Positions 2,290 through 58,632 of a stretch of DNA of 64,000 bases are shown piece by piece. Origin of the DNA: Eledone cirrhosa (Eukaryota); NCBI GenBank assembly GCA_964016885.1, contig OZ024740.1, forward strand, positions 408,642,001-408,706,000, written 5' to 3'. Both the position numbers and the translations under genes were made by a program. Positions within the stretch are counted from its first letter, which is position 1. Every line of letters starts with the position of its first letter. The notes under the pieces were generated by a model. The model searched no databases. It was given only the letters and a program-made list of their open reading frames with translations, and had not been told where the DNA came from.

Positions 2290-4845
<2,556 letters not shown>

Positions 4846-6387: not shown

Positions 6388-6577
6388 GGCGGCGGATTGG
6401 CAGTATCAGTGGAGGGTCGGACGCCATGCTTTGCAGCACAGTTACGTCCCTTTACGGACTGAGTTCAAATCCCGCCGAGGTTAACTTTGCCTTTCATCCT
6501 TACGGGGTCGATAAAATAAAGTACCAGTAATACACTGGGATAATTGCTGGCCTTGTGCCAAAAGTAGAAACAATTAT
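6388..6577 (+). mobile_element. tRNA-derived SINE (main family of this window)
   Basis: A-box-like TGGCAGTATC, B-box GAGTTCAAATCC, core TTTGCCTTTCATCCTTACGGGGTCGATAAAATAAAGTACCAG (recalled as Meta/MESC-like), tail GGCCTTGTGCCAAAAGTAGAAACAATT. Confidence 0.9.
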
Positions 6578-7076: not shown

Positions 7077-8578
7077 CTAGCGGCTAGATTTAAAGCTATC
7101 GAATGAGTGTCGGTAGTGGTGTTGGCACGAGGAAAACACCTCTGACTTTTTATTTAGGAGGTTTAGTTTCGAAAAGATTATAGTATGGGTCTCTAGAAGA
7201 CAGAGGTTACAAAATGTATTCGGTTGTTTATACGATGCAACCCTACCTACTACTTCCCATTGAAGTGTATATGTTCTATTCCTAGTTTTCAGAGAGTGTA
7301 TGTAGCTAGATAGTGAAGTGTAGTTGGCTAGATTGTGTTTTTTGAAAGAGTGGAGGTGCGAGTTGTATCTCATCTTGAAGCAGTTCGAAGTAGAGCCACT
7401 ATATGTTTTAGAAGAGTTGTTTGTGTTGACCGTGCAGGATTAAATGATGTCTTTGATTAAGCAATTATTACTTAATGGGTAAGTTCTATTTGATCTACAG
7501 TTACATTTATTTTGCCGGTTATTATGTTGTGCAGAAGTCTGGTTGTTATGGATAGCATTAGGGTAATGATGGTTGTCGTTCCTATTGTTATTGATTTCAT
7601 TAGTGTTATTACTATTATTACTATTGCTACTAGGGTTTGTAGTTATTATGTTGTTCTGTAAGTTTACCTTCTGCTGTGTTTTAATTAGTTGGAAATAATT
7701 ATTAATCTTCCTTTTATTACAACTAGCTATATGGAATGCTATGTTAGGTGTGGTAGAGTAAGAGATTTTAATGGTGTTTTTATTTATAAGATTATGGTAT
7801 TTGTCGCCAGATGGGAAGTTTTTTTCTAGGATTGAGAAGAAAGCCTTAGGTAAGTTGGTAGAAACGTTTAGATTGAAAGGGGGATTGAAGAATGTATTAG
7901 TTCTTCTTCTATTTTTGTTTTTTGTAATATCTATTGAGGTATTTCTGTTTATAATATTATTGTGGTGTTTACTTTGGTGCGAGTTAAGTTTGACATTACC
8001 CTTCGTATTAGAGTAAGAGTGGCTAGTACTCTTATTATTTTTCCTCATGGCCATATTGTGAGAAATAATGCTGTAACTATGTGATTTTATAGGTAGGAAT
8101 TCAATCCCATTTTTATGGCCTGATTTAGCTAATGCCTGATTATAGTATTGGGAATTATTGTTAAATATGGTTTCGTTTTATGATAGATTAGAGATTCTAT
8201 TAGATATTCCTTTAGTGATTGAGTTTAATATGGATTTAGGGTGGTTAGACTTGGTATCCACATAAATTAGGTTTTCGTTAAGTTTATGAAAGGGTGTATA
8301 TTTCTTAGAGTCTAGGCAAAGGGTAGCATCAAGGAAGTTAACATTTTTAGTGTTTTTGTCTAAGGCGATACTTAAGTTGAAGTTTTTGAAAATCTTATGT
8401 AATAGTTTCCTAGTTCTTTCTATATTAAATTTGTTATAGTCTATAAGGAGTAGTGCATCATCGCGGTATAAACCACCATTGATGTAGGGTAGGTTCTTAT
8501 GAATTTCATTTAGTAGATATAGGCCCACCAAATCAGTGACCTGCGGCGAGTCACTAGATCCCATAGTTATGTCAAAGT
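7077..8578 (-). mobile_element. 5'-truncated, frameshifted Penelope-like retroelement (RT plus C-terminal GIY-YIG; probably Hydra clade)
   Basis: FDITMGSSDSPQVTDLVGLYLL, GGLYRDD, VNFLD, SNHP, FFNPPF, IKISYS, CNCR..YPL.NNCL, TYSGST..FKMRY..H, CNLCLLE; abuts (TA)n at 8583; clade assignment from recalled motif pattern. Confidence 0.85.
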
Positions 8579-8650
<72 letters not shown>

Positions 8651-14137: not shown

Positions 14138-14706
14138 GAATGCTATGGTTGACGGAGGCTCGGCTGTGTAAGGTATTGTAAATTTTGACCGTTATAACAA
14201 TTGTAAATTGTTTAAAACTTTAACCAACTTGTAGACAAAAACACCCTCCTCCTCGTGAGAGGGGTCTTTCTGCCCGTTATTTGGCCCTTCGGGGTTAAAT
14301 AACCGCTTATTGGGGTTTTGTGCCCAATGTTTATTTTAAACAAAAAAATAATATGGCTACGAAAAAGAATTTTCATAGGTCACTCCCACTCATTCCGTCT
14401 TCTTCTTCCTCAATCGTCACTACAGCAGAGAGAAGATTGTCTCTCTCCCTCCCTTCTCTAAATGTGTCTCTCTCCCTCCCTTCTCTTTCGCAAGCGACGC
14501 CAGAAAAGAAAAATCACGTGCAAAGCGAGCAAGATTTATCCACGACAACGACGAAAAAGTTGTGCGGGAAATACGAAAACCCATTTCATTCGTCTGACGT
14601 CAGGAATAATAGCAGTAGCAGCCGTAATAACAGCAGCAACAGTGACAAGGACAACAACAGTAGCAGCCGCAACAACATCAGCAGCAGCATAAACAACAAC
14701 AGCATT

Positions 14707-14737
<31 letters not shown>

Positions 14738-17362
14738 GCAACAACAACCACAGCAACAGCGGCGGCGGCAGTAGTCGTAGTACCAGCAGCAACAACAAAA
14801 GTAACAGCAGCTCTGACGACAACAACAACAGCAGCAAAGAAAAACCAATCTCGTTTGCAGGTATCGCAAAGAACCTGGAAACCATCCTCATAACAAATGA
14901 GGAATTAGAGGAAGCGAAGAAGATGGTGACGAAAACTGGACACCGAACAATCTGCAAGGCAGCCGAAAATTTTTTCGAAACCCAACAACACTGTACGGTC
15001 ACGTACCGTACAGTAAGTACAAAATCCCGTAGGGTTGAAAGAGCCACAGAGGCTCAAATACAAAAAGCCTTAGGGTCTGTGTGGCAACGGAAAACGCATA
15101 TCACCCGAGGCAAGAAATATGCCACCGTGGACGTACTTTTTGCCACACCCCAGGAGGCAAAGGCTCAATCCTTAGTGACCCTAAGGAGCGAGGAAATGGT
15201 GTTGGTGCCCTCCTACTGCGGGCAAAAAATTGTGAGGGTCAAACTGACCCACGTCCCCCCCCCCCCCCCCCCCCCCCGGGATGGCCCCTTCTTGGCTGGC
15301 CGCCTCTGTCCTCGTCGGAATCGAGGACAAAATAACTGCACTGCAAGTACAGAAAAAAGTACGAGAAGATTCGGTCGGCACCTCCATTGAGATGTTAATC
15401 CAAACCAACCAAGAGTGCATCGAAGCTATCCCGGATGTGATAGACTTCGATAACGGCACTCAACTGCCCGTAAGTGTTGAGGGCAAACGCCCGCAATGCT
15501 TTCGCTGTGGATCGAAGACTCACCTCAGGGCCTTCTGCAATGAGAAGACCCTGAGAAAGGAGAAAACCCCCCCTCCTTCCGAAACCGGCTCCACTGCTAC
15601 CAGCAACAGAACAGGCGGCAAGCAGGAAGGATAGGTCCGTGGCACCCATACCCACGCCACGGAAATCAAGAACAGCAGCAGCAGTGGAAGTATTAACAAC
15701 AACAACAGTAATACCAACTGCAGCTGCAACAGAGACTCCACTGCAAACATCACCAACAACAACAAGTGAAAGAGTGGAGCTGGTACCCCTCCCCGACCTC
15801 ACAGAATCGGACATGGAGTGTGAGGTGGGAGAGGGATGGTAAAAGGTCGCAAGAAGGCACAAACGCAGAAGCAGCGCATCGTCGCCTTCGAAAAGGGAGG
15901 AAAGAAATGAAAAAAGGGCAAAGAGACTTACAGCAGCAACACCACCAAAACCATCACCACCCACACTAGCACCACCATCACCACCGGCGGCAACCACACC
16001 GCAAACAACCACAACACCTTCAACACCACCACCACAAGCACCAACATCGCAAACACAACAACAAAACACACACACCCAGCCACAACGACAAGAAAATAGC
16101 AGAACCACACCCCACCCCCAGAAAAACAAATGCACAGCAATAAATACACACAACAAGAAACTAAGGACTTACATAATTGAACACACAGACATTTCACAGC
16201 ACGACTACATAATACCAGCACCAATCAAAGCGCCAACTAACATAAGACTGGTAAGAATAGCACAGAAACAATACACAAACATTAAAACGAAATTCCCCAA
16301 CGCAGTTGGTGATTTCAGAGACCTAGGAGGGACACTCAACCGGAGAGTATATTCGGATACACTCACAGAAGAGCCGACGACCAGCCGAAGGGACGATTCA
16401 ACGGTCCCTTCACCAGACGATCAAGTGAAAAGGGATGGTGAAACCATCCTTCCTCTACGAGAAGTAAGGTAAGTGGCTTTCCCATCTTTTCCACTCCATT
16501 TCAATATGACCTCACTCAGAATAGGCAGCATAAATGCGCGTGGCTTGGGGTCGTCATGGAAGCAGGGCCACCTGCTCAACGACCTCAGGTCACTAAACAT
16601 AGATGTAGTGGCCATCAGCGAGACCAGAATCTCCGAGGCACGGGCCTTTGCACCGATCTTCGGCGGCTACGAAGTGTGCGCATCTCCCAGCCGTCCTGGA
16701 TCGGGGGGAGGAGTTGCTGTGCTTTTTCGGAGAGATTTGGATCTCGCCATACGGGCCATCTTCCTTGACTCAGAAGGTAAGTTGGTGGTGCTGAACGTGA
16801 CCAGCGGAGACGGGCAAGCTTTCAGGCTAGAGGCCGTCTATGCCCCGGCAGGAGCAGCGCGGCCTGATTTCTTCCGGCGTCTGGAGACCTTTCTAGGAAC
16901 GTCTTTAGTGTTAGTGGGCTCTTTAGTGTTAGTGGGCGACTGGAACGGGATCTTAGATGCACGCTGGGACTGTGTGGGATTAGCGGATAGGGGAGGAGGA
17001 TAAAAGAGCCTCACCAACCTGCTCAGGCGTTTTGAACAGTCTGACAGGTACCGATTGGATTTGCCGAATGTGCCAATGTAGACTTGGACAAACCGTATCG
17101 GGTCATCCAGATCATATCTAGATAGAGTATTTTGTATGGAAATAGATAGGTCTAGCATAGGCTGTCCACAATTCAAGAACGGAGAATTCCCAGCTCTGTG
17201 AACCGAGGAGCTGTGGCGCTGCTGAGAAAGGATCCGAACAAGGAGGATAACATAGATAATTTCAGGCCCATAACTCTGCTAAACACAGAGTTCAAGATTT
17301 TTGCCAAGGTGCTAGCAAAGAGGTTGGCGCTTGTCGTTGGTGGTCTGGTGGGAGAAGCGCAA
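14138..17362 (+). mobile_element. L1/Tx1-type LINE: 5'UTR, frameshifted ORF1 with CCHC knuckle, APE endonuclease, internal deletion, RT stub
   Basis: ORF1 from ATG 14353 (Asn/Ser-rich; CFRCGSKTHLRAFC); ORF2 from ATG 16506 (GSINARGL, SETR, YAP, GDWN, SYLDR); jumps at about 17176 to NFRPITLLNTEFKIFAKVLA. Confidence 0.9.
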
Positions 17363-20149: not shown

Positions 20150-20752
20150 TATTAGAATTGGTGCTCTGAAATAGCCATATATATATGAAGGTATATATAG
20201 TGTATTTTGCAATACACTTTATGCTTAATTAAAAGCATTTCGAAGACCTTATGCTATTGTTTTAGAGTAGTGACAGACTCACTTACTTTAATTTCAGCAA
20301 ACAGGGGGAGATAAAGTTGACAAGGCCTTGTTTCTGCATTTATTGATGCTTATCAAAGCCAACTACTCCTCCCATCTGCTGAAGTCATGCATAAAGTGTA
20401 TTGCAAAATACACTATATATACATTCATATATATATGGCTATTTCAGAGCACCAATTCTAATTTTTAATTTCTGCTTGACTGGCAACCGCTCTGTATAAT
20501 CAGTTCCTGATTATTTACTAGAATTCTATAATAACCAAACATCCATTATTTCAGCAGACGGGAGGAGTAGTTGGCTTTGATAAGCATCAATAAATGCAGA
20601 AACAAGGCCTTGTCAGCTTTATCTCCCCCTGTTTGCTGAAATTAAAGTAAGTGAGTCTGTCACTACTCTAAAACAATAGCATAAGGTCTTCGAAATGCTT
20701 TTAATTAAGCATAAAGTGTATTGCAAAATACACTATATATACATTCATATAT
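20150..20752. mobile_element. Non-coding hammerhead-bearing element: about 320-bp + unit with terminal redundancy, preceded by an inverted partial copy
   Basis: 20389-20432 repeats at 20709-20752; 20150-20383 is an inverted copy; hammerhead-like motifs at 20550-20640 (+) and 20293-20383 (-); homologous to 34150-35020. Confidence 0.75.
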
Positions 20753-20808
20753 ACGTATATATATATTCGACAGCTATATATATATATATATTGGGGTCAT
20801 ACTTGTTC

Positions 20809-23799: not shown

Positions 23800-25385
23800 T
23801 TCGTTGCTTCGTGTCTCGACACAACTTGTTACAGATCATTCGGAAGTTTAGAAGTTTTACAGCTGATTTTCAAACGTGTCTTTTTTTGTCTTATTTTGTA
23901 GTTAGAAATATCACGTTCCTTGTGAGTCAGCTGGTTTTCCTGTGTAGTCCTTAAAGGCTAAATCTGTGATTAATTTTCAAATGCATAAGAAGAAGATAAA
24001 AATGATTTCCCAACATTGCAAAAATTTGACACCAACACAACCAGAAATACAAACATTACCACCACCACCATCACTTTAACAACAACAAATATTACAGCAA
24101 CAAACAAACAATAAATTACAGTGGCAAGAACAATAAAGACAACACAAGCGTCTGCAACATGAACAACAATAATACCAGATTGGAGCGTCTGGTTTCTCAC
24201 TTCATGTGGAAGGATACAGGTTCCACTTGTCAAACGGTCCACTTGCTGCAAACATTCTTTGTGTGGAAGGTCTGGCAGCATATCGTGGCTGAGGATGTGC
24301 AAACAAGCACTGTGGCAACGCATTTGCAGATATTCGTAAACAGTGAACGGGTGTGGTCTCACTTTGTCAGGCACATCTTTCCGCAGCTCGTCTTTATGAC
24401 TAAGATGCAGTTTGGGGTCAAGCGAAGACCGAAACTGGTCACCGGGCATCAGGAATGTTGTCGGGTGCTCACAGCCCTCTACCAATTGGGTAATGTGGTC
24501 AGAGAAACTTCCACGCTATCGTTCTATAAAGGACATATGGGCAAGAGCGATGATGTTCTCGGAGAAACTCTAAGCGTCGACAAGAACGAACTAACCGGTC
24601 TGTTCGAGAGAGCTTTCGGTCCGGGGATTGTGGACAATTTCCAGAAATTCCTGGTCTGGCAGTGCCACCAGAGGGCACTACCGATTCGAGACAAACTCTA
24701 CTATCACGGAAGTTATGAAAGAAGTCGACGAAGAATTTGAAGAAGTAGAAATAGAAGGCAAAGAAGATACAGCCGTGTTGGAAAGATAAAAACTGAATGC
24801 TTTCGCAAGACAGGATTGAGAACGTCTGTGATGTGCGCAGACCGATGAAACCGTCCAGCATTGCGGATGTGTGGAGTTTTGTTTAACAGCTCTTGTCGCC
24901 TATAGGACAGATTCGGCTATCAGCCAACTCCATCATGAAAATCACTCCGCTGCCTTCTTTTGGTCAGGAAGAGCAAGCAGCTTTCCTCTCTGTTGGTTGT
25001 GGTTAAAGAAGTTGTGCGATGAACGCCACTGAAAAGACTGAAGACATTCCTCACTGGCCTAGCCCTCATCGACTTTTTCAAATTCCACTTGGAAAGAAAA
25101 GTGAGGGTGGAGAGGGGAGTGCTTCCTCCACTCCCAGTATATTTGTTAAAGGTGTGTGAATGTAGTCAGGATGACCCGAGTGAATGGGTCTAATCTAAGT
25201 AGGTGCCAGTGAGCTGGAGAGTTCAGAGTGGAGAGGTCTTCTTGACGATCGAGGTAATTTCAGATCTGTGGGGTTCATAAATTACCCTTGGATGATGCTC
25301 CCCTCTATTGGGCGATTATAGTGTTAATGTTTCTTGTTACCTTCTTATCTGGATTTTTTTCTTTTCATTTGTATTCTCCTTTGTG
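23800..25385 (+). mobile_element. Internally deleted, decayed L1/Tx1-type LINE (putative 5'UTR and ORF1 start joined to ORF2 3' part)
   Basis: Asn/Thr-rich stretch 24000-24175, then RLERLVSHFMWK...VWSHFVRHIFPQLV...WQCHQRALPIRDKLY, homologous to 55200-56170. Confidence 0.75.
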
Positions 25386-27620: not shown

Positions 27621-27833
27621 CTACTGCTCGATTTCCTGTAGAGTGGTGGGTTGGGGAGGAGCCTCGGAATGTCTAGAGCTGGGGTGATTGATGTGGCTGG
27701 ATGGGACTAGAGTTAAAGCTGGGTTTCGGGAACAAGTGGGACTGAAGGGCGAGCTAATACATCCAAGGTGAAAAAAAAAGAAACGGAGATGCAGCCATTT
27801 TGTATGTATGTATGTATGTATGTATGTATATAT

Positions 27834-30800
27834 AGAAGAATTCCCAGTAGGGATTAGTGAGCGTCTTATGTCCATGAGAGTTCCGCTGGACAAAGGTAGA
27901 TATGCTACCCTGGTGAGTGTGTATGCTCCAACTATGAATTCTGTCGATGAAGAAAAAGTGTCCTTTTACCATGCCTTGAAAGGTGTTTTAAGAAATATCC
28001 CTCAGGCAGACAAAGTCATCGTGCTTGGTGACTTTAATGCTAGAGTGGGTAGGGATTTTAACACATGGAATGTAATCGGAAGGCATGGGGTGGGAAAGTG
28101 TAACAGCAATGGTATGCTCTTGCTGCAGATGTGTGAGGAGCTGGATCTGTGTGTTACCAACACCATGTTCCAACAAAAGAACAAATTCAAGACCACATGG
28201 ATGCATCCTGCATCTAAGGAATGGCATCTTTTGGACTACGTCCTAGTCAGGATGCGTGACAGACAGGATGTGCAGTGTGTTCGTGCTCTTCGTGGAGCTG
28301 AGTGCTGGACGGACCACCGCCTGGTACGCGCAAAAGTGAAACTAATCACTAAACGTAAAATCCGGACTCCTTTTGTTGCCCTGCCCAAAACACTGAATGC
28401 TGCTCGTCTTAAGGATAAAAATGTGAAGAGGACATTGGAAGAAGAGATGCAGGCTGCAGATCTTGGTGAGGATTGGCCAACCCTTAAAAAGTCGGTTTAT
28501 GATGTAGGCAGGCGTGTTCTGGGACCGTCTATGGACCGTCTTCTTCTCTGGTGACACCGCTTTGCAACAAGGATGACAAAGAACTTCTTCGTGACTCACA
28601 AGGAATTCTACGAAGGTGGCGAGAGCACTTTGATGATCTTTTGAATCAGCCGTCTGTCATCAATGAAGATTTCCTCAATCTCATTCCAGAAAGTCCTGTG
28701 AAAGTAGCTCTCACAGAACATCCGACGCTTGAGGAGGTTGCAGTGGCTATCTCGAATCTGAACAGTGGAAGGTCTCCAGGTATGGATGGCATACATGCAT
28801 AGCTCCTACAATATGGGGGTGAGAGACTCCTGCAACATCTTCACTCTTTGTTTAGCAGGATATGGGCTAATGAATCCGTACCTGAGGACTGGAGAGATGC
28901 AGTAATGGTGGTCTTGTACAAGGTAAAGGGTAACAGGAATGATTGTGGGAACTACAGAGGTATATCATTGCTTTCTGTCGTAGGGAAAGTTTTATGTACG
29001 GTGCTTCTGGACCCTCTGCTGACACACATTGCAGATTGTGTTCTTCCTGAAAGTCAATCTGATTTTCGTGCTGGACGCGGCACTACTGATATGATCTTCT
29101 CAGCTAGACAACTCCAGGAGAAGTGCATGGAACACGGTTTGGATCTGTATCAGGATTTTGTCGATCTGACAAAAGCTTTCGATTCTGTTAACAGAGATGC
29201 ATTATGGAAGGTTCTCCAGAAACTTGGTTGCCCTGATAAGTTCCTTGCTTTAGTTAGGTCTTTCCATGACGACATGAAGGCTTGGGGTTAATGTCGGAGG
29301 TAACATGTCGGAGCCTATCTCAGTAAAAAAAATGGAGTGAAACGGGGATATTCCAGCACCAACCCTGTTTGCCATAAACTTTGCAATGGTTTTCTGTATT
29401 GCATTCAGGAATTTCGAGCATGGTGTTTACATCTGATATCGAACATCGGGCAGCATATTTAACATCAGGCGCTTTGCTGCAAAGACAAAAGTATTTACAT
29501 CAATCATAAGAGACCTCTTGTATGCAGGTGATTGCGATCTTGTAGCGCATACAGAAAGTGATATGCAGCACATTTTGAATGCATTTTCTGACGCTTGCAC
29601 TGCCCTAGGATTGACTGTCAGTCTCAAGAAAACCGTCGTCATGTACCAACCTGCCCCTGGTAAGCAGTACACTGAACCAAATATCTATGTGTATGGTAAA
29701 CGACTTGGAGTGGTTGATCAGTTTGTCTACCTGGGAAGCACTGTCAATCGATACAGCAACCTTGATAGTGAAATCTCACTTAGGATTAGGAAAGCAAGTG
29801 ATGCTTTCGGAAAGCTAGAAAGGCGACTCTGGAGTCGGCGAGACATATGCAGGAGGACAAAGGTAAAGGTGTACAAGGCATGTGTGCTCTCTTGTCTTCT
29901 TTATGCCTGCGAGACCTGGGTCACATATCGACACCACCTTAAGCAATTGGAGCGTTTCCATCAGATGTGTCTCAGACGAATCCATGGCGTTCACTGGAGG
30001 GACCACATCAGTGATGTCGAGATTTTGGAAAGCTCTATGTGTGACAGTATAGAAGCTCTTGTGCTTAAGAAACGACTCCGTTGGAGTGGTCACCTTGCCA
30101 GGATGAAGGATTCTAGAATACCAAAACAACTCTTTTATGGAGAGTTGGTTAAAGGAAAACGACCGTCACATAAACCAAAAAAGAGGTATAAGAACTTCTT
30201 GAAAGCCTCTTTGAAAGACGCTAACATCTCTGCTGATACGTGGGAAAATATTGCTGCTGATCGTAATAAATGAAGAAAGACTGTATATGAGGGAAAAGTT
30301 GCCTTTGAGGCATCTCGAATCGCATACGAGAAAGTAAAGCGGGATGTGAGGAAGGGCATTGCTGTTGCACTTCCAGACGGCGAGGGTCCTCCTATGGTGC
30401 TGACATGCAGCATCTGTGCGAGACTCTGCCTAAGCAAAGCTGGACTCGACAGTCATCTTAGCAGTCATAAAGTAAGACCAGTGGTTGACTACCAGGCTGC
30501 TGTTGGAGATGCTACTCATCATGCTTGCCAAACATGTGGTAGAGAATGTAAATCAGCAGGAGGCCTCAAGCGACATGCAAAAGTACATGAACTCCAACCA
30601 CAGCCGGCTATTCCCAGTGAATGTTTTGGTTGCCGACTCTGTGCAAGACATTTTAGATCATTGGCTGGGCTAAAAAGCCACATTCGATCGCAGCGCTGTT
30701 AGTTGCTATCGTGTGTGTGTGTGTGTATAGATATGTTTATGTGTGCGCGTGTGTGTGTGTGTATATATGTATATGTATATTATTATTGTTGTTATTATTA

Positions 30801-33629: not shown

Positions 33630-34332
33630 GATCGTTTTGGAAGCCTCAACAATGCAGATGCGTAAATCTCCGAGTAACAGAATCAGGTGGTGAAGAGAGA
33701 GATGTAAGAGGAAATGTAGAATGAGACATATAGTGTGTAGAGGAACATAGAAAGAATGTAAAAATAATAACACGAGATAGAGTTCCTTGGAAGTGATTTA
33801 AGTGTCCCTATATTTCGGATTTCGCATCCATCAACAGTTGAACACAAACGGCGGACAACAGAGGCCACATACCGTTCCTCTCCGACTAAAAACGATTCCC
33901 CTCGGAAAAAACCCCAGTTGATGGATGCGAATAACGTATACTAAGAATAGACACACACACACACATAGTAAGTTTCATATTGTTTACATCTACGCATCAT
34001 CTAATCTTCCGTCTCCCTGTCATATTGTATCGTCGTATTGATACATGCATACACGCTAGCTCGAAGTAGCTATGCAGCAAATTATGTAGTGATAAATCCT
34101 GTCATAAATATTATTCTCCTGCTTCCACCACATACATACATATATATATACTCCAAATTATAGTAGCTGAATTCTTATAGAATTCCAGTAATAATTAGGA
34201 GCTGATTATACAGACCGATTGCCGGTCCAGCAAAAAATTTTGCAATCGCTCTGTATAATCAGCTCCTCATTATTACTGGAATTCTACAAGAATTCAGCTT
34301 CTATAATTTCCGGCAGAAGCAGGGGAGTACGT

Positions 34333-34374
34333 GGTTCTGATGAACGCCAGCCAGCGTGAAACAGACTGTCAGCT
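34333..34374 (+). ncRNA. Type I hammerhead ribozyme motif
   Basis: GGTT-CTGATGA-ACGCcagccaGCGT-GAAA-CAGaCTG-TC-AGCT; stem I extends past an internal loop. Confidence 0.8.
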
Positions 34375-34825
34375 TCTCTGCCTTCTTTCGCAGAAAAGAA
34401 GTGACATAGTCACTACTTTAAAACTGATAGTGTATGGTCTTCTAAATATCTTTAATTAAACATACGGTATATTGCCAAATATACTATACAAACATTCATA
34501 TATATATATATATATATATATAATAAAAATATTATTTATACTTATATATAAACTATATATAATTATAAACAGAAAAGGTCAGTATTTTTTTATTTTATAC
34601 CACCTTATTACCAGTATGAAAAATAGCTCAATGTAAATACATCAGATGTCTTATTACAGAGCAGGAATATAAAATACAGAACAATCAAAACTATGTTTAA
34701 TACATTTTATTGCTGACAATCGTTTCTTCCAAACAGCCATTTGGATTCATCGGAGCGTTGGCAAAGCTTAAACATATAATTAAATTCCTATTCTACAGAA
34801 CAATCGGTGGAAGCCGAGAGTACGT

Positions 34826-34867
34826 AGCTCTGATGAACGCCAGCCAGCGTGAAACAGACTGTCAGCT
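34826..34867 (+). ncRNA. Type I hammerhead ribozyme motif
   Basis: AGCT-CTGATGA-ACGCcagccaGCGT-GAAA-CAGaCTG-TC-AGCT, extended by GAGAG/CTCTC. Confidence 0.85.
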
Positions 34868-35342
34868 TCTCTCCCTTCTTTCGCAGAAAAGAAGTAAGTG
34901 ACTACTTTAATACTGATAACGTATGGTCTTCTAAATGTTTTTAATTAAACATACAGTATATTGCTAAATATACTATACATACATTCATGTATAAATCGCT
35001 ATTTCAGAGCACCAATCCTAATATATATATATATATATATATAGTTTTGACACCTATGTACATGGGCTGCTTAGCCTCATTTGCATATTGAGCTATCAGC
35101 TGTCTCGGCCGGAAAATTGCAGGTAACTTCTCCTTAAAGAGTTTTTTAACCCGACTCTTTATTACAGGGTATCATTCCTTTCTTGTTCAGTTTAGCACTG
35201 CTAGTTTATTTCTGGCGGAATGGTCCCTATTATGTCTTGTTGTCGTCGTCATTGTCTTTGTTGTTGTTCGGGTTAGCCCTGATTAAGTAGACGTATGGTG
35301 ATGTGACTATCATATCTTTTTGTGATCAGACCACATTATTTC

Positions 35343-36370
35343 AAGGTTAACTTTGCCTTTCATCCTTACGGGGTCGATAAAATAAAGTACCAGTAATGTA
35401 CTGGGTAATTGCTGGCCTTGTGCCAAAAGTAGAAACAATTATTTGATATATCATAATATATCAGGGCGGTGGGTTGGCAGTATCGGTAGAGGGTCGGGCG
35501 CCATGCTTTGCAGCATAAAGTTACGTCCCTTTATGGTCTGAGTTCAAATCCCGCCAAGGTTAACTTTGCCTTTCATCCTTGCGGGGTCGATAAAATAAAA
35601 TACCAGTAATGAACTGAGATAATTGCTGGCCTTGTGCCAAAAGTAGAAACAATTATTTAATATATCATTCCTTTATTAAGATAATAGAATGCTGTTGGAG
35701 GAAGATTTTGCTGCTGTTTTTAACAGATCGAATGACCACTTAGAAGCAAACTACTTGACACGTTACAAGATAAGTTTTAATTTCAAAAACAGTAGCAACA
35801 AATGCCTTTCACCTTCTTGTGTTGATAAAAGTATTGGGTCTGTTAAATTGACTACACCCCTTTCAAACAATGTATGGCATTGGGCCTATGTTATAATAAT
35901 TATTTCTATTTTTAGAACAAGCCCAGCAATTTGAAGAGAAGGGAAAAGTCTATCAAATCGACCCCAGTGTATTCTTTATTTTACCGGCCCCGTAAGAACG
36001 AAAGGCAAAGCTAACTTCGGAGAGATTTGAACTCACTCTATGTTATAAATAGTAATAATTATTATTAGTCCTATTAAGAGCAGTGAATTAGCAGTATCGT
36101 TAAAGCACCAGGGAAATGCTTTTGTAGCATTTAGTTATGCTCCTTTATGTTCTGAGTTCAAATCCCACCGGGGTCAACTTTGCTTTTCATCCTTCTGTGG
36201 TCGATATAATAACGCACCAGACAAGTACTGGAGTTAATTTAATCGACTTTCCTTTCCTCCAAAATTGCTTGCCTTGTGTCTATATTAGACTGCCCTTTAA
36301 GTTCTGAATTCAAATCATGTCGAGGTTGATGTTGCCTTCCATCCTTCTGGGGGTTGGTAAAATAACAGAG
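35343..36370. mobile_element. SINE cluster (+ half 35343-35441, + full 35463-35656, - partial 35905-36035, older + copies 36078-36370)
   Basis: Family core and tail motifs. Confidence 0.85.
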
Positions 36371-38210: not shown

Positions 38211-39581
38211 GCCTGTTGCCCCTGCCCCCTCTTCCTTTCTTTCATTGCTTAATTCCCTTTCTTTTTCTTCTTACTCTTTTTCTAATTTACCTCTTTTTTT
38301 GTCTTTTTATTTCCATGTATATTGTACATTTTTTTAGCTAGATATTTTGTATTGCAATAAATTTTGTTTTCCATTAATTTTTATTTTTTATTTTTACTTT
38401 ATATGAGAGTATAAAAAGAGAGTTTGATATCAATACTTATTTTTTATGGCGATTGGAAGGGATATTTATTTCTCTCCACAATATACACAACCCACACCTA
38501 TAAATAGAATCATCTAATATTTTCCTCATAGTATTCCTATTATATCAATGAGTGTTACAATATATTTATTTCTCATTGTATCTTCTACTTGTAAATATTG
38601 GGTGGATTCAAGTGTCGTATAAGTGGATGCTATTCTATTATGTTAGAACATTGTATCTTCATAAATACCACGCTTACAACTATCAAAACATTGTCAGTAA
38701 ATAGGATTCAAAACAAAATTAGATAAACAATGGACTTTATTATTATTCATTTAAAAGGTTTATTTGGCGGAAATCTTGTGTGGTATACTTCCGTAAAATA
38801 CTTTCCGCTTGTATCCTTGACACAACTTCAGTGTTGTATAATTTGTAGAAAGAGGATTGACAGAATCAATAGAGTGAAGGACAAAATCTCTTTCAGTATC
38901 TGTTCCGACTTTCTACGTTCTGGGTCGTCCATCTTTGTGGAGTCCAGGACGTGTGTTGATGAAATTGTTAAGACGTCGGATGGGATACTTCCTGATATTT
39001 ATTCGAGCCCATGATTTCTGAGTTCTTGAGTGATAAACTTAAATCATAGTTCGGTTTAACACTCCTCCTACCAGGTTGTTGTTTTTTTTGCGGGGTTCAT
39101 TCTGTTGAAATCATTTTAGCCAGAACTCCGGTTTTAGAATAATTTCCTTTCTTCTTCCCACCAGTCTCAGATAGACTGAAGAAAAATAAGGTCAGGTTTG
39201 CTGCATTTTCCTCCCTGGTTGAACAGCATTCGACCGACTGGACAGTTCAGTTAGAAAAACAAAGCCTGTCACATTCTACAGTAAACTGGTAGATGGTATG
39301 ATTGATGGTGACTTGGAGATTACTTTACGAGTCGAAAATGACTTTATACACACTCAGACTTATAAACCAAGCAATATAGATAGTTATACTTGGGGAGGGT
39401 CATATTTGCGTAATATTGCCAGAATTAATAACAGAACACACTCACTATTTGGTTGGTTTTCGCTTCTCGCTGTCTTTTATATCTGCGATCTAACTTACTC
39501 GGTCCTCAATGTTGCCATTGACTGACCGACGGTCAAAAATAATACAGATACAATATAGACACAAACACATATATATAGTTT

Positions 39582-39633
39582 ACATAATTTACATAAATCT
39601 TTCGTTGCACATCTGCAACATCGTCAGTGGTGT
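39582..39633 (-). ncRNA. Degenerate hammerhead motif in the PLE 3' pseudo-LTR
   Basis: CTGACGA-tGTTGCAgatgTGCAAC-GAAA-gATTTAtgTAAAT-TA; stem I weak. Confidence 0.55.
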
Positions 39634-39893
39634 TATATTCTTTGTTCCTCCTGTTGTGTTGTATGTCTACGCCATTTTTTATTCAGTCTGTCTATATATT
39701 TATTTATTTATTTGCTTGTTTGTTTATCTTATTTTATTTTGTCTTCTTTGCGCATGCGTTTGCGTGTGTGTATAGTGTTATGTGTGCTGTGTGACTAGTG
39801 TGTATAGTGTTGTGTCTGCTGGGTGACTAGTGTGTGTTTATGTGCTTGTGTATGTATTTATTTATCTTATTTTATTTTATTTTATTTACTTAT

Positions 39894-41624
39894 TTATACT
39901 TCTCTTAGGTCAGTGTTGTTTGTTTGGGTGTTGTTGTTGTTCCACTCATTCTTTCTGTTTAGCTTTGGTCTTCTAATTTCTATTTCACTGGCCTCTCTGA
40001 TTTGCCTATCTGCTGGGTCATTCCTATGTTTAGATATTATTCTAATTTCTATGTTGTCTATGTTACCGTCATGTTGTTGTCTAGCATGTTCGTATAGTGC
40101 TGACCCGTTTTTTCGTCCTTTTAGTTCCCCCCAGTGTTGGTCTATCCTTTCACCTATGCTACGAGCTGTCTCACCTATGTATGTTGTTGTCATGTTTCTG
40201 CAAGTACCCTCTGTACATCTTATGCTATAGACTACGTTTCTAGTTTTACAGTTTATCCGGGGGTTCACCTTACATATGATACATTTGATACATTGTCTAG
40301 CATGTTCGTATAGTACTGACCCGTTTCTAGTTTTACAGTTTATCCGGGGGTTCACCTTACATATGATACATATGATACATTGTCTAGCATGTTCGTATAG
40401 TACTGACCCGTTTTTTCGTCCTTTTAGTTCCCCCCAGTGTTGGTCTATCCTTTCACCTATGCTACGAGCTGTCTCACCTATGTATGTTGTTGTCATGTTT
40501 CTGCAAGTACCCTCTGTACATCTTATGCTATAGACTACGTTTCTAGTTTTACAGTTTATCCGGGGGTTCACCTTACATATGATACATTTCCTATTGGTAC
40601 AGTGGGTTTTCTTAAAGGGGTAGGTTTTGCTGATCAGGGATTTTATGGTGGTTCCTGGCTTTTCTACCACCTTTATTTTTAAGTGGGTCTTTCTCAGGGC
40701 CTTTCTACACTGGTTAGCTAATTTTCCTCCAGGGGTGGCGTCCACAAACATGACACTCTGATATCTCTGGTTGTCGTGCCATGATGTGGCCTTCCCTATC
40801 TTATGTCTAGCCCTATCTAAGCTATTCCATGATTTGCTCCTGTATAGTGGGCAAATTCCTTTCATGTCCAGTTCTATGAGGGTCTTATACTTTTCCATGG
40901 CTCCTTCGTATACTCTGATTCTGTCTCTTTGGTTGTAGCCAGAGAACTGCATGCGGTTGATGAAGTGTTGGATGTGTCTTTCCATTTCTGTTGGGTCGCA
41001 CATGCTGGACACATTCTTCATCACTCGTACCAAATCTGCGATCAGAATATTAAACTTAGCACTACTGGACATTGCTGAGTTTTTGAGTATCAGGTATTTG
41101 GAGGCCGTGGGTTTAGCATAGTGTGAGTGGAGAATTTGGGCTCTCTCGTCTATAGTGTTAATCCAGAGTTCTGTGTCTAATACAGGTAGTCTATTGTTAG
41201 GGTGTTTGGAAGGGAAGTCGATAGTTACAGTTATACTCTGGTGTATGGAATTAGCTATCTGCTGGATGCTTTCCATCGTGCTACGTTCTAAATCAAACTT
41301 GTTAGTGCTCTCTAGTGGGGGTGTTCTTATAACTATATTGATATCGTCTACATAACGAGAGTACATGATGAGGTCTATGGAGCTTTCATTAAGGAGATCT
41401 TTAAGTCTCCTTTTCCACCATACCATGAAAAGGTTGGCAACATCACCAGCTATGCTGACGCCGATGGCTGCTCCCTCATTTTGGGTGTAGATTTTCTCAT
41501 TGAACTTAAATATGTGGCCCTTTAGGGTAGTTTTGATACTAGCCCCTATTGCATGTGCGACCATTTTTCTTACCTGATCAGTGTTTTGGGGGGGGTCCGT
41601 ATAGCTTTGGTCCCCCCAATCCAC
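39894..41624 (-). CDS. PLE reverse transcriptase C-terminal half plus tandem GIY-YIG endonuclease (frameshifted from 41570..42022)
   Basis: 576-aa open frame carrying the motifs above. Confidence 0.75.
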   Translation of the reverse strand: MDWGDQSYTDPPQNTDQVRKMVAHAIGASIKTTLKGHIFKFNEKIYTQNEGAAIGVSIAGDVANLFMVWWKRRLKDLLNESSIDLIMYSRYVDDINIVIRTPPLESTNKFDLERSTMESIQQIANSIHQSITVTIDFPSKHPNNRLPVLDTELWINTIDERAQILHSHYAKPTASKYLILKNSAMSSSAKFNILIADLVRVMKNVSSMCDPTEMERHIQHFINRMQFSGYNQRDRIRVYEGAMEKYKTLIELDMKGICPLYRSKSWNSLDRARHKIGKATSWHDNQRYQSVMFVDATPGGKLANQCRKALRKTHLKIKVVEKPGTTIKSLISKTYPFKKTHCTNRKCIICKVNPRINCKTRNVVYSIRCTEGTCRNMTTTYIGETARSIGERIDQHWGELKGRKNGSVLYEHARQCIICIICKVNPRINCKTRNGSVLYEHARQCIKCIICKVNPRINCKTRNVVYSIRCTEGTCRNMTTTYIGETARSIGERIDQHWGELKGRKNGSALYEHARQQHDGNIDNIEIRIISKHRNDPADRQIREASEIEIRRPKLNRKNEWNNNNTQTNNTDLREV

Positions 41625-44562
41625 CTTCCTATGGGAGTCTTTTTAGCCATTGAGGTTATGGTGGGGGGTCTACCTCTTATAGGTCTACTAGGGCAGAAAC
41701 ATCTAAGGTCATGGCTGTCTAGGTAGTCAGTGTCGTAGGTAAGTCTAAGTAGGAGGCGCAGTTCGTCTGTGTCGACGTCACAGAACTCCACCTCACTCTC
41801 AATGATCATCTCCACACATCTTTTCACAGCAAAATCAATGTTAATGGATGGGTACAGTGACACCACATCCATGCTGCCTATTATGCAGTTGGATAGGCTC
41901 CTGTTTTTGTTGCACTCACTGATTCTGCTGAGGAGGTCCTCTGTACTTTCACATACATCTGGGGACATCTTGATTATGGGGCGTATAACCATTGAGAGGA
42001 AGTAGATACAATATAGATACAAACTTCCAGAAATCCTTAGCTTGTACAGTATATGTTACCGAGAAGCAGCAATAATGCGATAAGCAGTAGATCTACAGTA
42101 ATCCGAACAGAAGAATTTGACCGCAACTCTTCTGTAAGCGCCTGCCTTGTGTCCACAACTCGCTTGTTTGTGTATGTATTTCGAACAATTGTTATTAAAT
42201 CCAAATTGAATCCTAATTCAGTAGGCCTATATTCAGAGATAACTCAGCATTCAATCTAACACCTCCTTCCTTTTTTAAGACAGTAAGGTGTGATTTGAAT
42301 TAAATTAGGATGTTGGTCAACCATATAGAATCTCCCTCATTGATTTATGGTGATATTGCTTTCGCTGTTTACTTCCTTGTTAACCATTTTCAAATAGATA
42401 TATGATTAAAGGTGTTCACTTAGTGAATAACATTTTATTTAAAGACAGTGTATTTAGGACAATAAAATAAAAGTACTAAGAGTCAATAAAATAAAATATC
42501 AGTCGAGTATTTCTGTCGATGTAATCAACTGTTCTGCTCCCTTCCAAATTTCTGGTTCTAGTGAAAGGTATTGCATGGTAGACAAGATTAAAACTACTGG
42601 AGAGACACGTTCTTCATTGATGAATACGTCATCAACTTCAAACTTTGACAAGAAAGTCAATGTGAAGGGAGGAGTGCTTTCTTTCAGGAGATTTGCTGGA
42701 AGGTGTATGAGCGGTAAGAATGTCTCGCGTGATTGAGTCTACAAATGTAGACCAGAAACTCGAGTTGAAAGAGGACAATTATTCTTGATAGCAAGGGTAA
42801 TCCGAAATAAGGTTACGAGAAATTTGACATATCTCTGCTTCTCTGTAAACGAATTGAAGGAAGCATTGGCCGACGTGTGGGACAGTCTCTTGTCCATCGA
42901 ACAAGGCAGTGTCTCACTGATTTGGGGGATGAAAATGGAGGCAAAACAGTAAGCAGAGGTGGTGAAATTCATACTCGTCTTTGAGCTTGTACCGCTGTAC
43001 ATGGACCAGAATAACACATGAGTAACAATCAGGTGCATTTGGTAGTGAGAATGCCCTCCCCCCGGTTCATTGTCACGTTTTTAGCGCAATTTGGACAAGA
43101 ATGCAGACGTGAGAATGGTTTGAAAGTGTTTAAGACTCCTTAAGACATTTCCCTTCCAGAGTGGGATTCCGACTTGCAAGCAGATACACAGGTAATAAGT
43201 CTGGCAATACAGGGGAGATTTTCCAGCTGTTAAATATATGACAGCAAAAGTAGATACTTGAGAGTAGCTTTCTGTCTTAGAATGTAGTTCCTGAAAAGGT
43301 AGAGGAAGAGAGAAGGGGGCAAAAGGCAGTAGAACCGGTAATAACAACAACAGGTCCCAGAAGCTGACCATACCAGTTAAAGCCCTGGAAATGGCGCAAA
43401 AGATTACTTCATACGCGGTCTCAGAAGCTGACTATACCGAAGCACTACACCTCCAAAGTAATACCACTCCATTCACGATGGGGTCTGATTGGTGGTTGAA
43501 GAAGAGTAATAGACCATAGCAGGGAAAAGGGAAAAGGACGAAGAGGCGGAAGAAGATCGACAAGAAAAAGCAAAAGGTGAATAAAACACAAAAGGGTCTC
43601 CACTCCACCGAACATGAAATTCACAGACATTAGATTATACATGTTCCTCAATAAAACCAATAATGAAGATGTAGGCTATGAGGAGGAAAACAAAGGCCGA
43701 TATACATAAGGCAGGAGAACGATAGGATAGTGAAAACTATACCAGTTGTATCAGAAGACGTTGCTGGTGAGTGTGGTCAACAAAAGATAAATGTTCAAGT
43801 GTGCCTTTTGGTATATCCAGTTTCAATATAATGGGTGGCTGACCTGGAGCGCTTGAACCAGACCTAACTAGTGGGTTTTCACTCGTATGTGGGTGGGCCA
43901 CATAGTTTGTGTTTCCATTTCTTAAATTATATTTGGTTTTAATTATGAAATGATTTTATATAATTGTATATTTATTGACCTTTACTCTTTATTAATTTTT
44001 TGCTCTTCATTATATAAAATTCTTCCCCTTCCTTTCGTTTTTTTTTTTGTAGAACTTTCTCTTGTTTCTCCACACATGTTTTATATACTCCACATTTTAA
44101 CATGTTATTTGTGTGACTAATAAAGAAATTGCGTGTCTTTTATGGAGCTGCGTGAGCTAAAAAGTATCGAATTACTTTCAGAATTGGATGTTTGGTGTGG
44201 TGGAGGAATCTGTTACAGATATAAGTTAAAAGTTTATCTTTGTGTTTCTCTCCAATTGGGAGAAGAAAATATTTTACATTAAAATTTGTTTGCCGTCGGA
44301 TAGTTTTCTCTCTACAAAGCATGGAAATAACGATTACAAAAATCTGAACAACTGAAATAGTAGCAACAATAGCTTCTCTAGTTTATCAAACGGAAAGAAA
44401 TATGTCATAAAATATTCCGTCTTCTTGCTTGACCATTTTATGAAAAAGACAAAAACAAAAATGGACATTAAAAGCTATCTTTTATTGAAAGTACATTCAA
44501 ATTCAATTTTTTAGGATTTTACTCTGATTTATAAATGATGTTTGGTGTTTGGTTTTTAAAAG

Positions 44563-55196: not shown

Positions 55197-58100
55197 CTAC
55201 AGCCGCATGACCAGAGTAGGCCCACTCACACGGGCCATTCTCGCCACATTCACCCACCTTTCAGCAAATGTACTGGGGGGCAGCACTTCTCTCTCCACCC
55301 TCACCTTCCTTTCCAAGTGAAACTTGAAAAAGTTGATGAGGGATTGGCCGAAGAGAAAAGTGTCTGTCTTCAGTCCTTTCAACCTCGTCCACCATACAAC
55401 CTCTTTCGCTACTGCCACCAGACAGAGGAAATTTGCCTGCCCTTCCTGGCCAAAAGAAGGCGGCGGGTCGATCTTCACTATGGACTCGGCCGATAGCCGG
55501 ATCCGTTCTACACGCGACAACAGCTGTTCAACATAACTCCACAAGTCAGTAATGCACGGACACTGGACGAGTGCGTGCAGAACGGTTTCGTCGCTCTGCG
55601 CGCATCTCGGGCAGATCCGTCTGACAGCACTTCCGTGCCTGTAGAGTTTATCTCGAACCGGCAGTGCCCCCCGGTAGCACTGCCAAGCGAGGGATTTTTA
55701 GAAATTATACACCGTCCCCGGCTCGAAAGTCCTCCGGTACAGACTGGTTAGTTCGACTTCGTTGACTCCCAGAGCCTCTCCGAGTGCGTCGTCGCACTTG
55801 CCCACCACTAATCCTCTATAGAACTCGAGAGTGGAAGTTCCACTGACCGCATTGCCCGCCTGGTAGAGGGCAGTGAGTGTCTGGCAACATTCCAGATGCC
55901 AGTCACCCAGTCTCGGTCTCTTCTTGACCCAGGACTGCAGCTCAGTCAAAGAAACGAGCTGCGGAAAGGCCCGTCTGACAAACGGCGACCACACCTGTTC
56001 ACCGTTTAGGCAGAATATCTGGAGATGCCGCAGCCTCAGCGCGTGCCTGCGCATCATTAGCCACGGCATTCCCAGCCCTCCACGTAGAGGGTGCTGGCAG
56101 CAAATGGACCGCCTCACCAGCGGAACCTGACCCCTCCACAAGAATTTGAAAAGGAGTCGCTCCAAGATGGCGAGGTGCGAACGGGGTCAAGGGACGACGG
56201 TCAGACGGTAGTAGATGACGGACGCGACGTACGCGTTCGCCACCTCCGCCCGACCTTTCACTGATAGCTTCATCCCAGCCCATTTCTGGGTGAGACTGGC
56301 TACCCTGCCCGTCAACTCGTCCCAATTTTTATCCACCTGGAGGTCTGGCCCGAACCAAACACCTAGCAACTTTACCGGTCCGTCCGTCCAGCGCCTAACG
56401 ACGTTGTTGGACGGCATGGACTTGCCTCTCCAGGTGCCGAGTTGCAAGCCCACCGACTTTTCCGGATTAAGTTTTGCTCCCGTCAACCTTTCATATTCCT
56501 CCAATAAGGTGCCGACCACCTCGATTTCTGAGGTGCCCGACACCATCAGGGTGATGTCCGCATAAGCCGACACAGCCTTTCCGCGTCCCGGTTCGAGCGG
56601 GATGCCCTGCAACAGCTCCAGCTCTTCCGCAGTAAAGGCTCGAGAGTCAATACGTACAGAAGAGAGGAGAGAGGGCACCCTTGACGGACCGATCGGGAGA
56701 CCTGAAACGGTTCCGAGAGGTGGCCATTAATTTTGACCACCGAGCAGATGCCCCTGTGCATTGCAGCGATCCAGCTTCTGAAGACGGGGCCGAAGCCAGC
56801 CGCCTTGAGGACAGCCTCCAGGTACCGATGGTCCACCCTATCGAATGCTTTCGATTGATTGATCTAAATTGATCAGAGCCCCACCGAAGCCAGGTTTACA
56901 CCCTACCCTCTCTATGATGTATCGCATTAGGTGGAGGTTGTCGTGTATGGACCTGTTGGGATTGCGCAAGTTTGCGCCTCCCCAACCAAATCCCCCACGA
57001 TAAGCACCAACCTCTTTGCTAACACCCTGGCCAAAATCTTAAACTCTGTATTGAGCAGAGTTATGGGCCTGAAATTGTCTAATGTGTCCCTCTTGTTCTC
57101 GTCTTTCCTTATCAGCGTCACTACGCCCCGGCTCACAGAACTGGTAATACTCACATTTTGCTGCCAGTTGCAGTAGAGGGCCTCGAGGAGGTTGAAGAAC
57201 AAGTCTGGCATATTTACGTAAAACTCGTAGGGCAGACCATCCAAACCGGGTGACTTGCGCCTCATGCAGCCGACAAAGGCATCCTGAATCTCGGCTGAAG
57301 TAATTGGCCTTTCGCAGCGCCCAGCGTCAGCCGTCGAGAGTTGCGGAAAGCCATCGAGGTAGGGACTGAAATCCGCCACCATCTCTGACCCGCCACTTCC
57401 CCCGAACAACCGAGCAAAATGTTGGCGAAAGGCCTCACACATCCTCTTGGAATCGCTCAGCTTGTGTCCGTCTCGGTCCGTCAAAGACCGAATCGTGGTT
57501 TTATTACCACGCTGCGCCTCTCCCACGCGGGCCCATCGGACAGTTTTGGTTCCCTCGTTTCTCAGAGCACGCGCCTTTGCTCTGACAATGCAACCTTCGT
57601 GTTTCGCATTGAAGAAATAGTCTAATACCATTCTAGCCGCTAGCACGTCAGTTGCAATGCCACTACCAATAGCCTCGTCTAACTTATCTACCAACTCCCC
57701 CTCCTTTCTATTTTTCTCTAACGCTACTTCTTTGCTAAACTCTATCGACATTACTCTAATCTCTCTTTTGAGAGCCCCCCACCGTCTATTGTTGAAGACT
57801 CCCCCTGTCAACTTTTTCTTAACTAATTGTAAGCCTTACGTGCCGGAAATGAGATGTTTAGCTTCCAGTAACCAGGTCCTAACCTACGCGTCTTATCTAG
57901 GTTGACCATACAGATCACAAACTTGTGATCTGAATAGGCGACCGTTTCAAAACGTGGACGGCTTACACTATTTCTGTCTATTTTCCTAATGAATATCCTG
58001 TCTATATAAGATCTAGATGACCCTATGCGGTTAGCCCAGGTCCACACTGGCGCATTAGGGAAATCTAGTCGGTACCTGTCAGACAGTTGGAACTGGCTGA

Positions 58101-58597
58101 TCAGGTTCTTGAGGCTTTTGCACCCCCCGCTCCTATCGGATACTCCCACACAGTCCCAGCGTGAGTCTAAGATGCCGTTCCAGTCCCCCGCTAACAGTAA
58201 AGGGCGAGACGTACCCAGAAAGGCTTCCAGGCGTCTAAAGAAGTCCTTCCCCAGTAGGAGCATAGACAGCCACCAGTCTAAAGGCACCACCTTCGTTATT
58301 GTTCACGTCCAGGACCACCAACTTCCCATCCGGGTCCCGGAAGATCGACCTTACCTCGAGATCCAGGCCTTTCCTAAACAGCACCGCCACCCCACTTCCC
58401 ATTCCCGGCCGGCTAACAGATGCAAAGATCTGATAGTCGTCGAAAATGGGGGCTAGTGCGCGTGTGTCGGAAATCCTGGTCTCGCTGACGGCAATTACAT
58501 CCATTTCTATAGACCTGAGGTCGTTGAGCAGGCGACCCTGCTTCCAGGACGATTCCAAGCCTCGAACATTTAAACATCCTACTCTTAATATGGCCAT
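55197..58597 (-). pseudogene. LINE ORF2 (APE endonuclease, RT, C-terminal zinc motif), frameshifted
   Basis: GCLNVRGL, SETR, YAP, GDWN, SYIDR, SDH; SPGLDGLPYEFY, FRPITLLN, RQGCPLS, AYAD(D), GGLG. Confidence 0.92.
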
Positions 58598-58632
58598 GTT
58601 GGCAGGTTAAAAAGAGAGAGAGGAAGGTTTAC

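Follow-up and report, generated by a model that had tools for sequence, protein, structure and literature searches.

Two-armed insertions of a short hammerhead repeat family in Eledone cirrhosa resemble those of Penelope-like elements

Metazoan non-LTR retrozymes are short repeats with units of 220–240 nt in coral, 350–390 nt in mussel and 330–350 nt in axolotl, and circular RNAs have been demonstrated for all three (Cervera and de la Pena, 2020, PMC7229834). The same authors hypothesize that the enzyme of a Penelope-like element (PLE) makes tandem cDNA on the circle; the main text of their paper contains neither "inverted" nor "rolling". In vertebrates, non-LTR retrozymes were recently presented as PLE derivatives that are homologous to PLE pseudo-LTRs, and local tandem amplification by unequal crossover was suggested (Li, Clavereau and Pollet, 2026, bioRxiv 10.64898/2026.07.22.740005); no mollusc was sampled, and "head-to-head" and "tail" are not mentioned. 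As to the enzyme, a PLE protein was shown to cut and extend both target strands, with two internal start sites defining the tail (Frangieh et al., 2024, PMC11167929); the protein is predicted to be dimeric, and the later steps of integration are stated there to be unvalidated. The inverted copy and the one-ended tail of PLE insertions have likewise been described (Craig et al., 2021, PMC8557442).

The locus under study lies in a 64-kb stretch of the Eledone cirrhosa genome, referred to here as the window. A scan of both strands of the window for a hammerhead core plus three stems returned two matches, both on the plus strand: the type I hammerheads at 34333–34374 (core from 34337, predicted cleavage after 34370) and 34826–34867 (core from 34830, predicted cleavage after 34863). 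The preliminary description of this DNA had reported two full type I hammerheads with stem I extended past an internal loop; both are indeed present, 493 nt apart, with the extended stem I at each, and the cut positions predicted there agree with those expected from a direct reading of the sequence. The locus had also been called non-coding, and no open reading frame of at least 120 aa overlaps it. Between the two copies, the 78-nt ribozyme region is 96% identical and the 183-nt repeat 89.6%. Rfam yields no match at either hammerhead at the gathering level; below threshold, the Hammerhead_HH9 family is found at both sites (E 0.85 and 0.2). Folding energy does not single out the ribozymes (z -1.4 and -0.15). 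Both have a stem III of 1–2 bp, which is near-palindromic, and therefore cleavage as a dimer is predicted, short or weak palindromic stems III having been associated with dimer cleavage (PMC4209133; PMC7229834).

Comparison of 16 natural variants of the ribozyme from the Eledone cirrhosa genome supports the assignment: 94.8% of the stem cells are paired, against 20–41% in slid controls, and 8 of the 12 stem pairs show two-sided changes, including a swap in the core between C3-G8 and U3-A8 (7 vs 9 variants) that is already known from PLE ribozymes (PMC4209133). Since the 16 variants are mutually related, the shuffle control overstates the significance; to judge from these relatives, the covariation of the stems is a sign of selection on the ribozyme.

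In the preliminary description, the two ribozymes bracket the repeat unit of a candidate dispersed family that would give rise to a 493-nt circular RNA. Two observations speak in favor of this model, namely that two intact cores on the same strand would release a 493-nt RNA upon transcription of the locus, and that a stable fold is predicted for the stretch in circular form (z -4.9). However, among 30 ribozyme loci the window is the only one with a 493-nt spacing of same-strand cores, the spacer runs into this ribozyme at none of 29 other spacer loci, and none of 43 other matches (40 of 1,421 candidates scored) spans the junction at 34804/34805. The spacer itself is an antisense piece of another element: positions 34522–34803 (minus strand) derive from the 3' end of a Penelope element of Hydra-like type (family B), truncated on its 5' side and 94% identical to a copy elsewhere (L061). 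Because the middle of the 493-nt stretch is the end of an unrelated element and the junction is spanned by no other scored match, the stretch is not the monomer of the family. The true units fold equally well (z -3.2 to -5.3), so that folding does not discriminate between the two. A family of 493-nt monomers is hardly credible and the model largely refuted, although a circle from this single locus, of which no offspring was detected, is possible. The monomer, and hence the predicted circle, measures 312–316 nt here and 320 and 310 nt in two sister subfamilies, and the ribozymes do not belong to consecutive units but are most likely the two arms of one inverted head-to-head insertion.

Family B, with 3,131 first-look candidates in the genome, shares no significant sequence similarity with the hammerhead repeat, hereafter family A. 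Elsewhere its copies extend by more than 3 kb into a minus-strand open reading frame resembling the element at 7–8.5 kb of the window. Their translations contain a CxCX5C linker as well as CxxC and CxH motifs in a C-terminal endonuclease, and the target is (TA)n; by these motifs, family B fits the Hydra clade as described by Craig et al. (2021, PMC8557442). It also carries a minimal hammerhead of its own, overlooked previously, at 34712–34756 (minus strand, predicted cut at 34715). Its core has C in place of U at position 4, a state found in 18 of 25 listed copies, and 6 copies have U; the U copies may be products of CpG decay. A candidate role of the spacer as the 5' head of a parent element was ruled out, the spacer being the 3' end of a minus-strand element. 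Further family-B relatives in the window are a fragment at 3528–3604 (plus strand) and a degenerate Hydra-like element at 6750–8582 (minus strand, ~77% identical). The former (83%) is all that the supposed relative at 3490–3700 amounts to: it matches the spacer family only, and not the ribozyme family. Another Hydra-like subfamily (L127:1-2850) has a 1.4-kb 3' UTR with a degenerate hammerhead-like motif.

How the family-A pieces of the locus belong together can be read from their order. From left to right, these are the start (~80 nt) of a long arm at 34155–34236 (minus strand, unit positions 176–255), which would have been displaced by an inversion; arm 1 at 34242–34499 (plus strand), 5'-truncated and with a short 3' end against the (AT)n target at 34500–34521; the family-B fragment; and the remainder of the long arm at 34804–35022 (plus strand, unit positions 256–167), whose tail of ~34 nt (~34989–35022) is joined to (AT)n at 35023–35043. 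The inverted 5' piece noted previously is thus real, and together with 34242–34309 it forms a 68-bp inverted repeat. Its last unit position is 255 and the first of the second copy is 256, with neither gap nor overlap. Of the rare letters of arm 1, one is common to the inverted piece (0/58 elsewhere) and two to the second copy (2/75 and 6/74 elsewhere); of 54 other arms, only one carries three or more of its 13 rare letters. Because the abutment at 255/256 is exact and all pieces have rare variants in common, the locus is very probably one head-to-head insertion, of which 34155–34803 was later inverted together with the adjoining 3' end of the Hydra-like PLE. When this segment is flipped back, the order becomes Hydra-like 3' end, (AT)n, a short arm running leftward, a 301-nt long arm running rightward, and (AT)n; the inversion is supported by the fact that this is the standard short-plus-long layout of the family. 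A 4-nt indel, which differs between the copies of the window and agrees in 8 of 9 other pairs, argues against a single insertion and had first suggested two independent ones, a possibility overridden by the shared rare variants. The left breakpoint coincides with the truncated 5' end of the family-B fragment, and the left flank is unlike family B, which suggests that the inversion arose with the integration of family B or accompanied a deletion. At 20 of 249 positions the two arms carry different letters; since other old family-A insertions show a similar divergence (6.7%), the locus is old.

Two other histories can be considered. The locus might have started as a direct dimer whose 5' side carried a small inverted piece, and the Hydra-like fragment would later have been inserted at an internal AT-rich site, replacing ~125 nt. 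Direct dimers do occur, the shared rare variants are equally compatible with this history, and the family-B fragment ends in (AT)n and meets the second copy via 2 nt of microhomology. Nevertheless, it leaves the exact abutment at 255/256 to chance, and the inverted arm would have neither of the two family ends, which makes it improbable. Still less credible is an assembly error at a short inverted repeat. The 34803/34804 junction is unbridged among the short-read contigs listed (part of the joints and pieces, which is no evidence of absence), but the rearrangement has two breakpoints without a long inverted repeat flanking them, and the family-level results are independent of this locus. The inversion of a head-to-head insertion hence remains our reading of the locus. 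If transcribed, the two-armed layout would yield long perfect hairpins (68 bp at 34155–34309, kilobases in young arrays), and two-armed copies are a possible source of double-stranded RNA. Other repeats of the window include a SINE-like repeat present in several copies (family D2/D3, at 35294–36352 and 6400–6580), which we take to be one known from octopus genomes, and fragments of several non-LTR retrotransposons with endonuclease/reverse transcriptase reading frames (14299–17003, 23970–24740, 27772–30702 and 55197–59947).

For the ribozyme region of family A, a first look at the 3.0-Gb genome gives 2,340 candidates, and its 28-letter core occurs exactly at 218 places. The monomer of 312–316 nt is apparent from full dimers, with a period of 316 nt in one (L108) and of 303 nt (L109) and 291 nt (L077) in two others, both with deletions. 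At 29 family-A loci viewed over their whole length, what precedes the ribozyme is either the 3' tail of the unit itself or an inverted arm, or else the copy is truncated there. The relative at 20150–20752 that had been noted previously is genuine and represents a young sister subfamily, A', which is ~75% identical to family A: the window holds a two-armed A' insertion at 20151–20761, with a 320-nt unit, the U3-A8 core, the long end on the left and the short end on the right. Subfamily A' has 1,967 candidates, the best of which match at 97–99%, and the 320-nt period is seen in 3 of 30 loci. Its ribozyme combines the U3-A8 swap with a perfectly palindromic stem III, and 27 of 30 loci (L078-L107) have an extra A before the GAAA box. 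The genome contains 5,482 exact occurrences of a tail motif common to A and A'. A third and very young subfamily, A'', first met beside a family-A copy (L113), is 67% identical to family A, has a period of 310 nt, and yields 4,225 exact matches to its 32-letter ribozyme core.

The following features of retrozymes are present in this family: one hammerhead per unit, head-to-tail dimers to multimers within 150–450 bp, a low GC content (38%, 34% and 35% in the units of the family, where retrozymes lie below 45–50%), and the absence of a reading frame, there being none of at least 120 aa over the locus and nothing but the unit in the A'' arrays. It thereby resembles the known metazoan non-LTR retrozymes, which are likewise non-coding head-to-tail repeats (310–320 nt, 34–38% GC and thousands of copies here, as dimers to multimers) with one type I hammerhead per unit and a weak palindromic stem III. 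For the retrozymes of Cervera and de la Pena (2020, PMC7229834) circles were shown, and for the Eledone family they are predicted. Of the earlier retroelement reading, the dispersed, non-coding, hammerhead-bearing family with PLE insertion marks stands, and the 493-nt monomer does not. A hairpin of 7–8 bp with a 4-nt loop lies ~15 nt before the short end in all three subfamilies (34468–34485 in the window); it is kept via compensatory changes with three different loops, and is a candidate binding site for the enzyme. One further locus (L250:708-1310) contains an older tandem of 163 nt (~3.7 units), an A'-type fragment in which both start sites are kept and the ribozyme is missing. In a short-read sample, the unit junction appears as loose ends at 34236, and the 310-nt unit is found without differences at a level of at least 10%; these data are the contigs of three runs from one sample, possibly the assembly's own source, and carry no information on copy number or RNA.

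The architecture of the insertions is clearest in the A'' subfamily, of which 33 loci were compared, i.e., 10 clusters (L158-L167) plus 23 loci chosen by two variants (L256-L278). The first 100 of the 4,225 A'' cores contain 10 clusters of exact 310-nt period (the first at G000:C1:5388705), and in 9 of these 10 a minus-strand run is followed by a plus-strand run. The arms measure 0.6–14.4 units and stop at a random 5' phase, and arrays reach up to ~20 units. Six of the first nine arm junctions overlap by 1–4 nt, and three have 2–18 nt between the arms. Complete two-armed arrays are found in 29 of the 33 loci, the remainder comprising two incompletely covered and two single-armed loci. All 29 complete arrays have one short end (unit position 128–139) and one long end (156–172), ~30 nt further. 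An automatic classification of ends (36 long+short, 12 short+short, 0 long+long) included duplicates and false matches at the palindromic hairpin and is not relied on. Across the superfamily, (TA)n adjoins 104 of 118 outer ends, and the ends join it directly; the flanks consist of (TA)n, and at one insertion (L233) a possible duplication of ~12 bp was read by eye, where target-site duplications of retrozymes, if present, exceed 4 bp.

An inverted 5'-truncated copy, a tail of 30–40 nt at one end and a (TA)n target are insertion marks of the PLE type, and the family shares them with Neptune and Hydra PLEs (Craig et al., 2021, PMC8557442; Frangieh et al., 2024, PMC11167929), along with two start sites of reverse transcription and the cutting and extension of both strands. 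It differs from these PLEs in that the repeat has no reading frame and the arms are multimers of a tiny unit. In being non-coding PLE passengers with multicopy head-to-tail insertions, the repeats are also comparable to Chlamys elements, e.g., MRC1, which are mostly without hammerheads and have 3' ends in common with autonomous partners (PMC8557442), and in this differ from the Eledone family. Unlike the retrozymes of PMC7229834, the Eledone repeats form two-armed head-to-head insertions with strict short and long ends and with array-private variants in both arms.

Variants within the arrays point to the number of templates. Rare variants are shared within insertions more often than between them, with 13/91 vs 23/1,923 in A', 2/3 vs 0/48 in A'', and 17/170 vs 65/3,088 in A; by this measure, both arms of an insertion are copied from one template. 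In addition, variants that are unique to one of the 33 A'' loci fill all units of the respective array (20/20 in L257, 13/13 in L262, 6/6 in L258 and 6/6 in L276), and are present in both arms at L257, L258 and L276, over a background of scattered single-unit changes. Most array-wide A'' variants are lineage markers common to several arrays (one in 12 of 33 loci). Exceptions to the one-template pattern are L265, in which the arms differ at the variant that was used for selection, and 8 unrelated A'' arrays (L271-L278), in which an A>G change at unit position 92 is confined to a single unit. The latter change is array-wide in a separate lineage, and this position is a possible hot spot of copying errors or editing. 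The array-wide variants were also considered as products of A-to-I editing of the circle, which was rejected, the 21 distinct changes comprising 6 A>G (two of them search-chosen) and 6 T>A. Changes at unit positions 128–137, beside the short ends, were ignored as run-over of the alignment into (TA)n.

Taken as a whole, the explanation that we consider probable is that a hammerhead repeat of 312–316 nt was inserted in two arms into (TA)n by PLE-type copying of an RNA circle, followed by an inversion. A multimeric transcript would be cut by its hammerheads into monomers, probably as dimers, which would then be ligated to a circle, as suggested by the retrozymes of PMC7229834. The PLE protein would cut both (TA)n strands and extend both ends, for which there is an in vitro precedent in another PLE (PMC11167929). 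Going by the pattern of ends seen here, one arm would be primed at the short site and the other ~30 nt downstream; the arms would be copied over 0.6–14.4 units until they stop at a random phase, and their 5' ends would be joined, in most cases through microhomology or filler of a few nt. At the window locus, 34155–34803 would then have been inverted, taking along the 3' end of the Hydra-like PLE beside the short arm. The enzyme would most likely be that of a Neptune-like Penelope family, family N, or a close relative.

That an RNA circle served as the template of reverse transcription likewise appears probable. Arrays combine 3' starts at fixed sites, 5' stops at random ones, copying that crosses the cleavage site many times, and a template common to both arms; together these make up the footprint that one RNA circle would leave if it were reverse transcribed in rolling-circle fashion from both target strands. 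Unequal crossover at the DNA level would not on its own account for arrays that are dispersed, two-armed and matched in their ends. A different template for the same family and the same two-armed insertion would be a long multimeric RNA, transcribed from a few master arrays and left uncleaved. In vitro, uncleaved RNA was the main substrate of the PLE protein and ribozyme mutants still inserted, i.e., ribozyme cleavage was dispensable (PMC11167929), which means that a long linear transcript could be the template; only one of nine predicted retrozyme dimers was cleaved in vitro (bioRxiv 10.64898/2026.07.22.740005). The lineage markers common to several arrays and the existence of the ribozyme-less tandem (L250) agree with a linear template as well. 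However, linear copying that truncates the 5' end cannot increase the number of units, and single-locus variants are found in as many as 20 of 20 units, on both arms. Array-private, array-wide variants would be explained by a monomer bottleneck followed by amplification, and linear copying from master arrays would require unseen sources; of the 141 units with the main variant 100 were listed, so that an unseen source array is possible. On balance, we regard the linear template as rather unlikely and continue with the circle.

With regard to the mobilizing enzyme, the preliminary description had named the elements at 7–8.5 kb and 39.6–42 kb. The former is a relative of the spacer's PLE; the latter, a 5'-truncated Neptune-like copy of family N at 39380–42005 (minus strand) with intact 1,216-aa copies elsewhere, is a good candidate. 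Family N has 18,138 candidates in the genome; the 150 best matches are 97–100% identical over 161 aa, without stops, and several of them lie in open frames of 1,215–1,218 aa, from which it appears that the family is very young and currently amplifying. The 1,216-aa reading frame carries a long Asn-rich insert (L198-L209). Searches of Pfam and of PDB sequences with this frame found nothing; the protein has a CX4CxxC linker, and its nearest clusters bear RVT_1, HTH_animal and GIY-YIG domains, and by the linker motif and these neighbors family N is assigned as Neptune-like. It occurs in near-identical tandems of 4,145 nt, has two alternative long ends (44 and 58 nt), and in 10 of 10 two-armed insertions it pairs a short end with a long one. 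The arms of one N insertion differ by a mean of 1.8 mismatches per 1,135 nt, against 13.8 between insertions. The short-plus-long rule (29/29 in A'', 10/10 in N) is stricter than the start sites reported in vitro, which show no strand difference (PMC11167929).

We lean towards family N or a relative as the mobilizer of the retrozyme family. Two family-A insertions (L013, L233) occupy precisely the site at the short end of N-type repeats, and a junction between an N relative and A' has 7 nt of microhomology, as read by eye, with both ends long (L235). Such adjacency is weak evidence because N-type ends are abundant and both families target (TA)n. Against family N, no significant similarity to the repeat is seen apart from AT-rich matches, and the N tail measures 44–58 nt, compared to ~33 nt in the repeat. 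A hairpin at a place similar to that of the short-end hairpin is present in N-type elements, and is weaker. Family B as the mobilizer, via a chimeric B/A insertion, was dropped, as the inversion accounts for the junction.

Alternatively, a coding Penelope element as yet unseen could have the repeat as its pseudo-LTR or 3' terminus. Every insertion mark is PLE-like, animal retrozymes are derived from PLE pseudo-LTRs according to the vertebrate study (bioRxiv 10.64898/2026.07.22.740005), and a rare parent could escape a comparison with four PLE types. This seems very unlikely nonetheless: in the loci read, the ribozyme is preceded by the tail of the unit itself, by an inverted arm or by the point of truncation, and arrays of up to 20 units hold nothing besides the unit. 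In tblastn and adjacency scans of ~120 loci with four PLE types, no PLE reading frame (reverse transcriptase plus GIY-YIG) collinear with the unit was found. The co-occurrence with PLEs, the presence of monomers, dimers and multimers and a proposed mobilization by PLEs are features common to the Eledone family and the vertebrate retrozymes; in distinction from the latter, no homologous parent was found here, and the array structure points to amplification at insertion.

In a search, mostly of open-access literature, on octopuses and cephalopods and on inverted, head-to-head or rolling-circle arrays, neither the family nor two-armed retrozyme arrays were found described. Judging by its sequences, the family would thus be a member of the non-LTR retrozymes that was not previously described in the literature searched, with unusually clear mechanistic footprints. 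The locus that first drew attention is an old, rearranged copy of modest interest, and its 493-nt arrangement is a one-off. The synthesis of tandem cDNA on a circle by a PLE has been a hypothesis since the work of Cervera and de la Pena (2020, PMC7229834), and the young A'' subfamily makes it directly testable. As a young retrozyme subfamily and a young autonomous PLE share a strict architecture, the template, the strand-specific choice of start site and the partner can be tested as well. It is an even call whether the arrays are frozen integration records of single molecules, in which a dimeric enzyme copied one circle for up to 14 turns on both strands from a short and a long priming site before the two cDNA ends were joined, with the 310-nt subfamily and its 1,216-aa Neptune-like partner being active at present. 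If this were true, Eledone cirrhosa would harbor a natural, circle-templated insertion system that targets (TA)n, inserts up to 6 kb and could be rebuilt in vitro.
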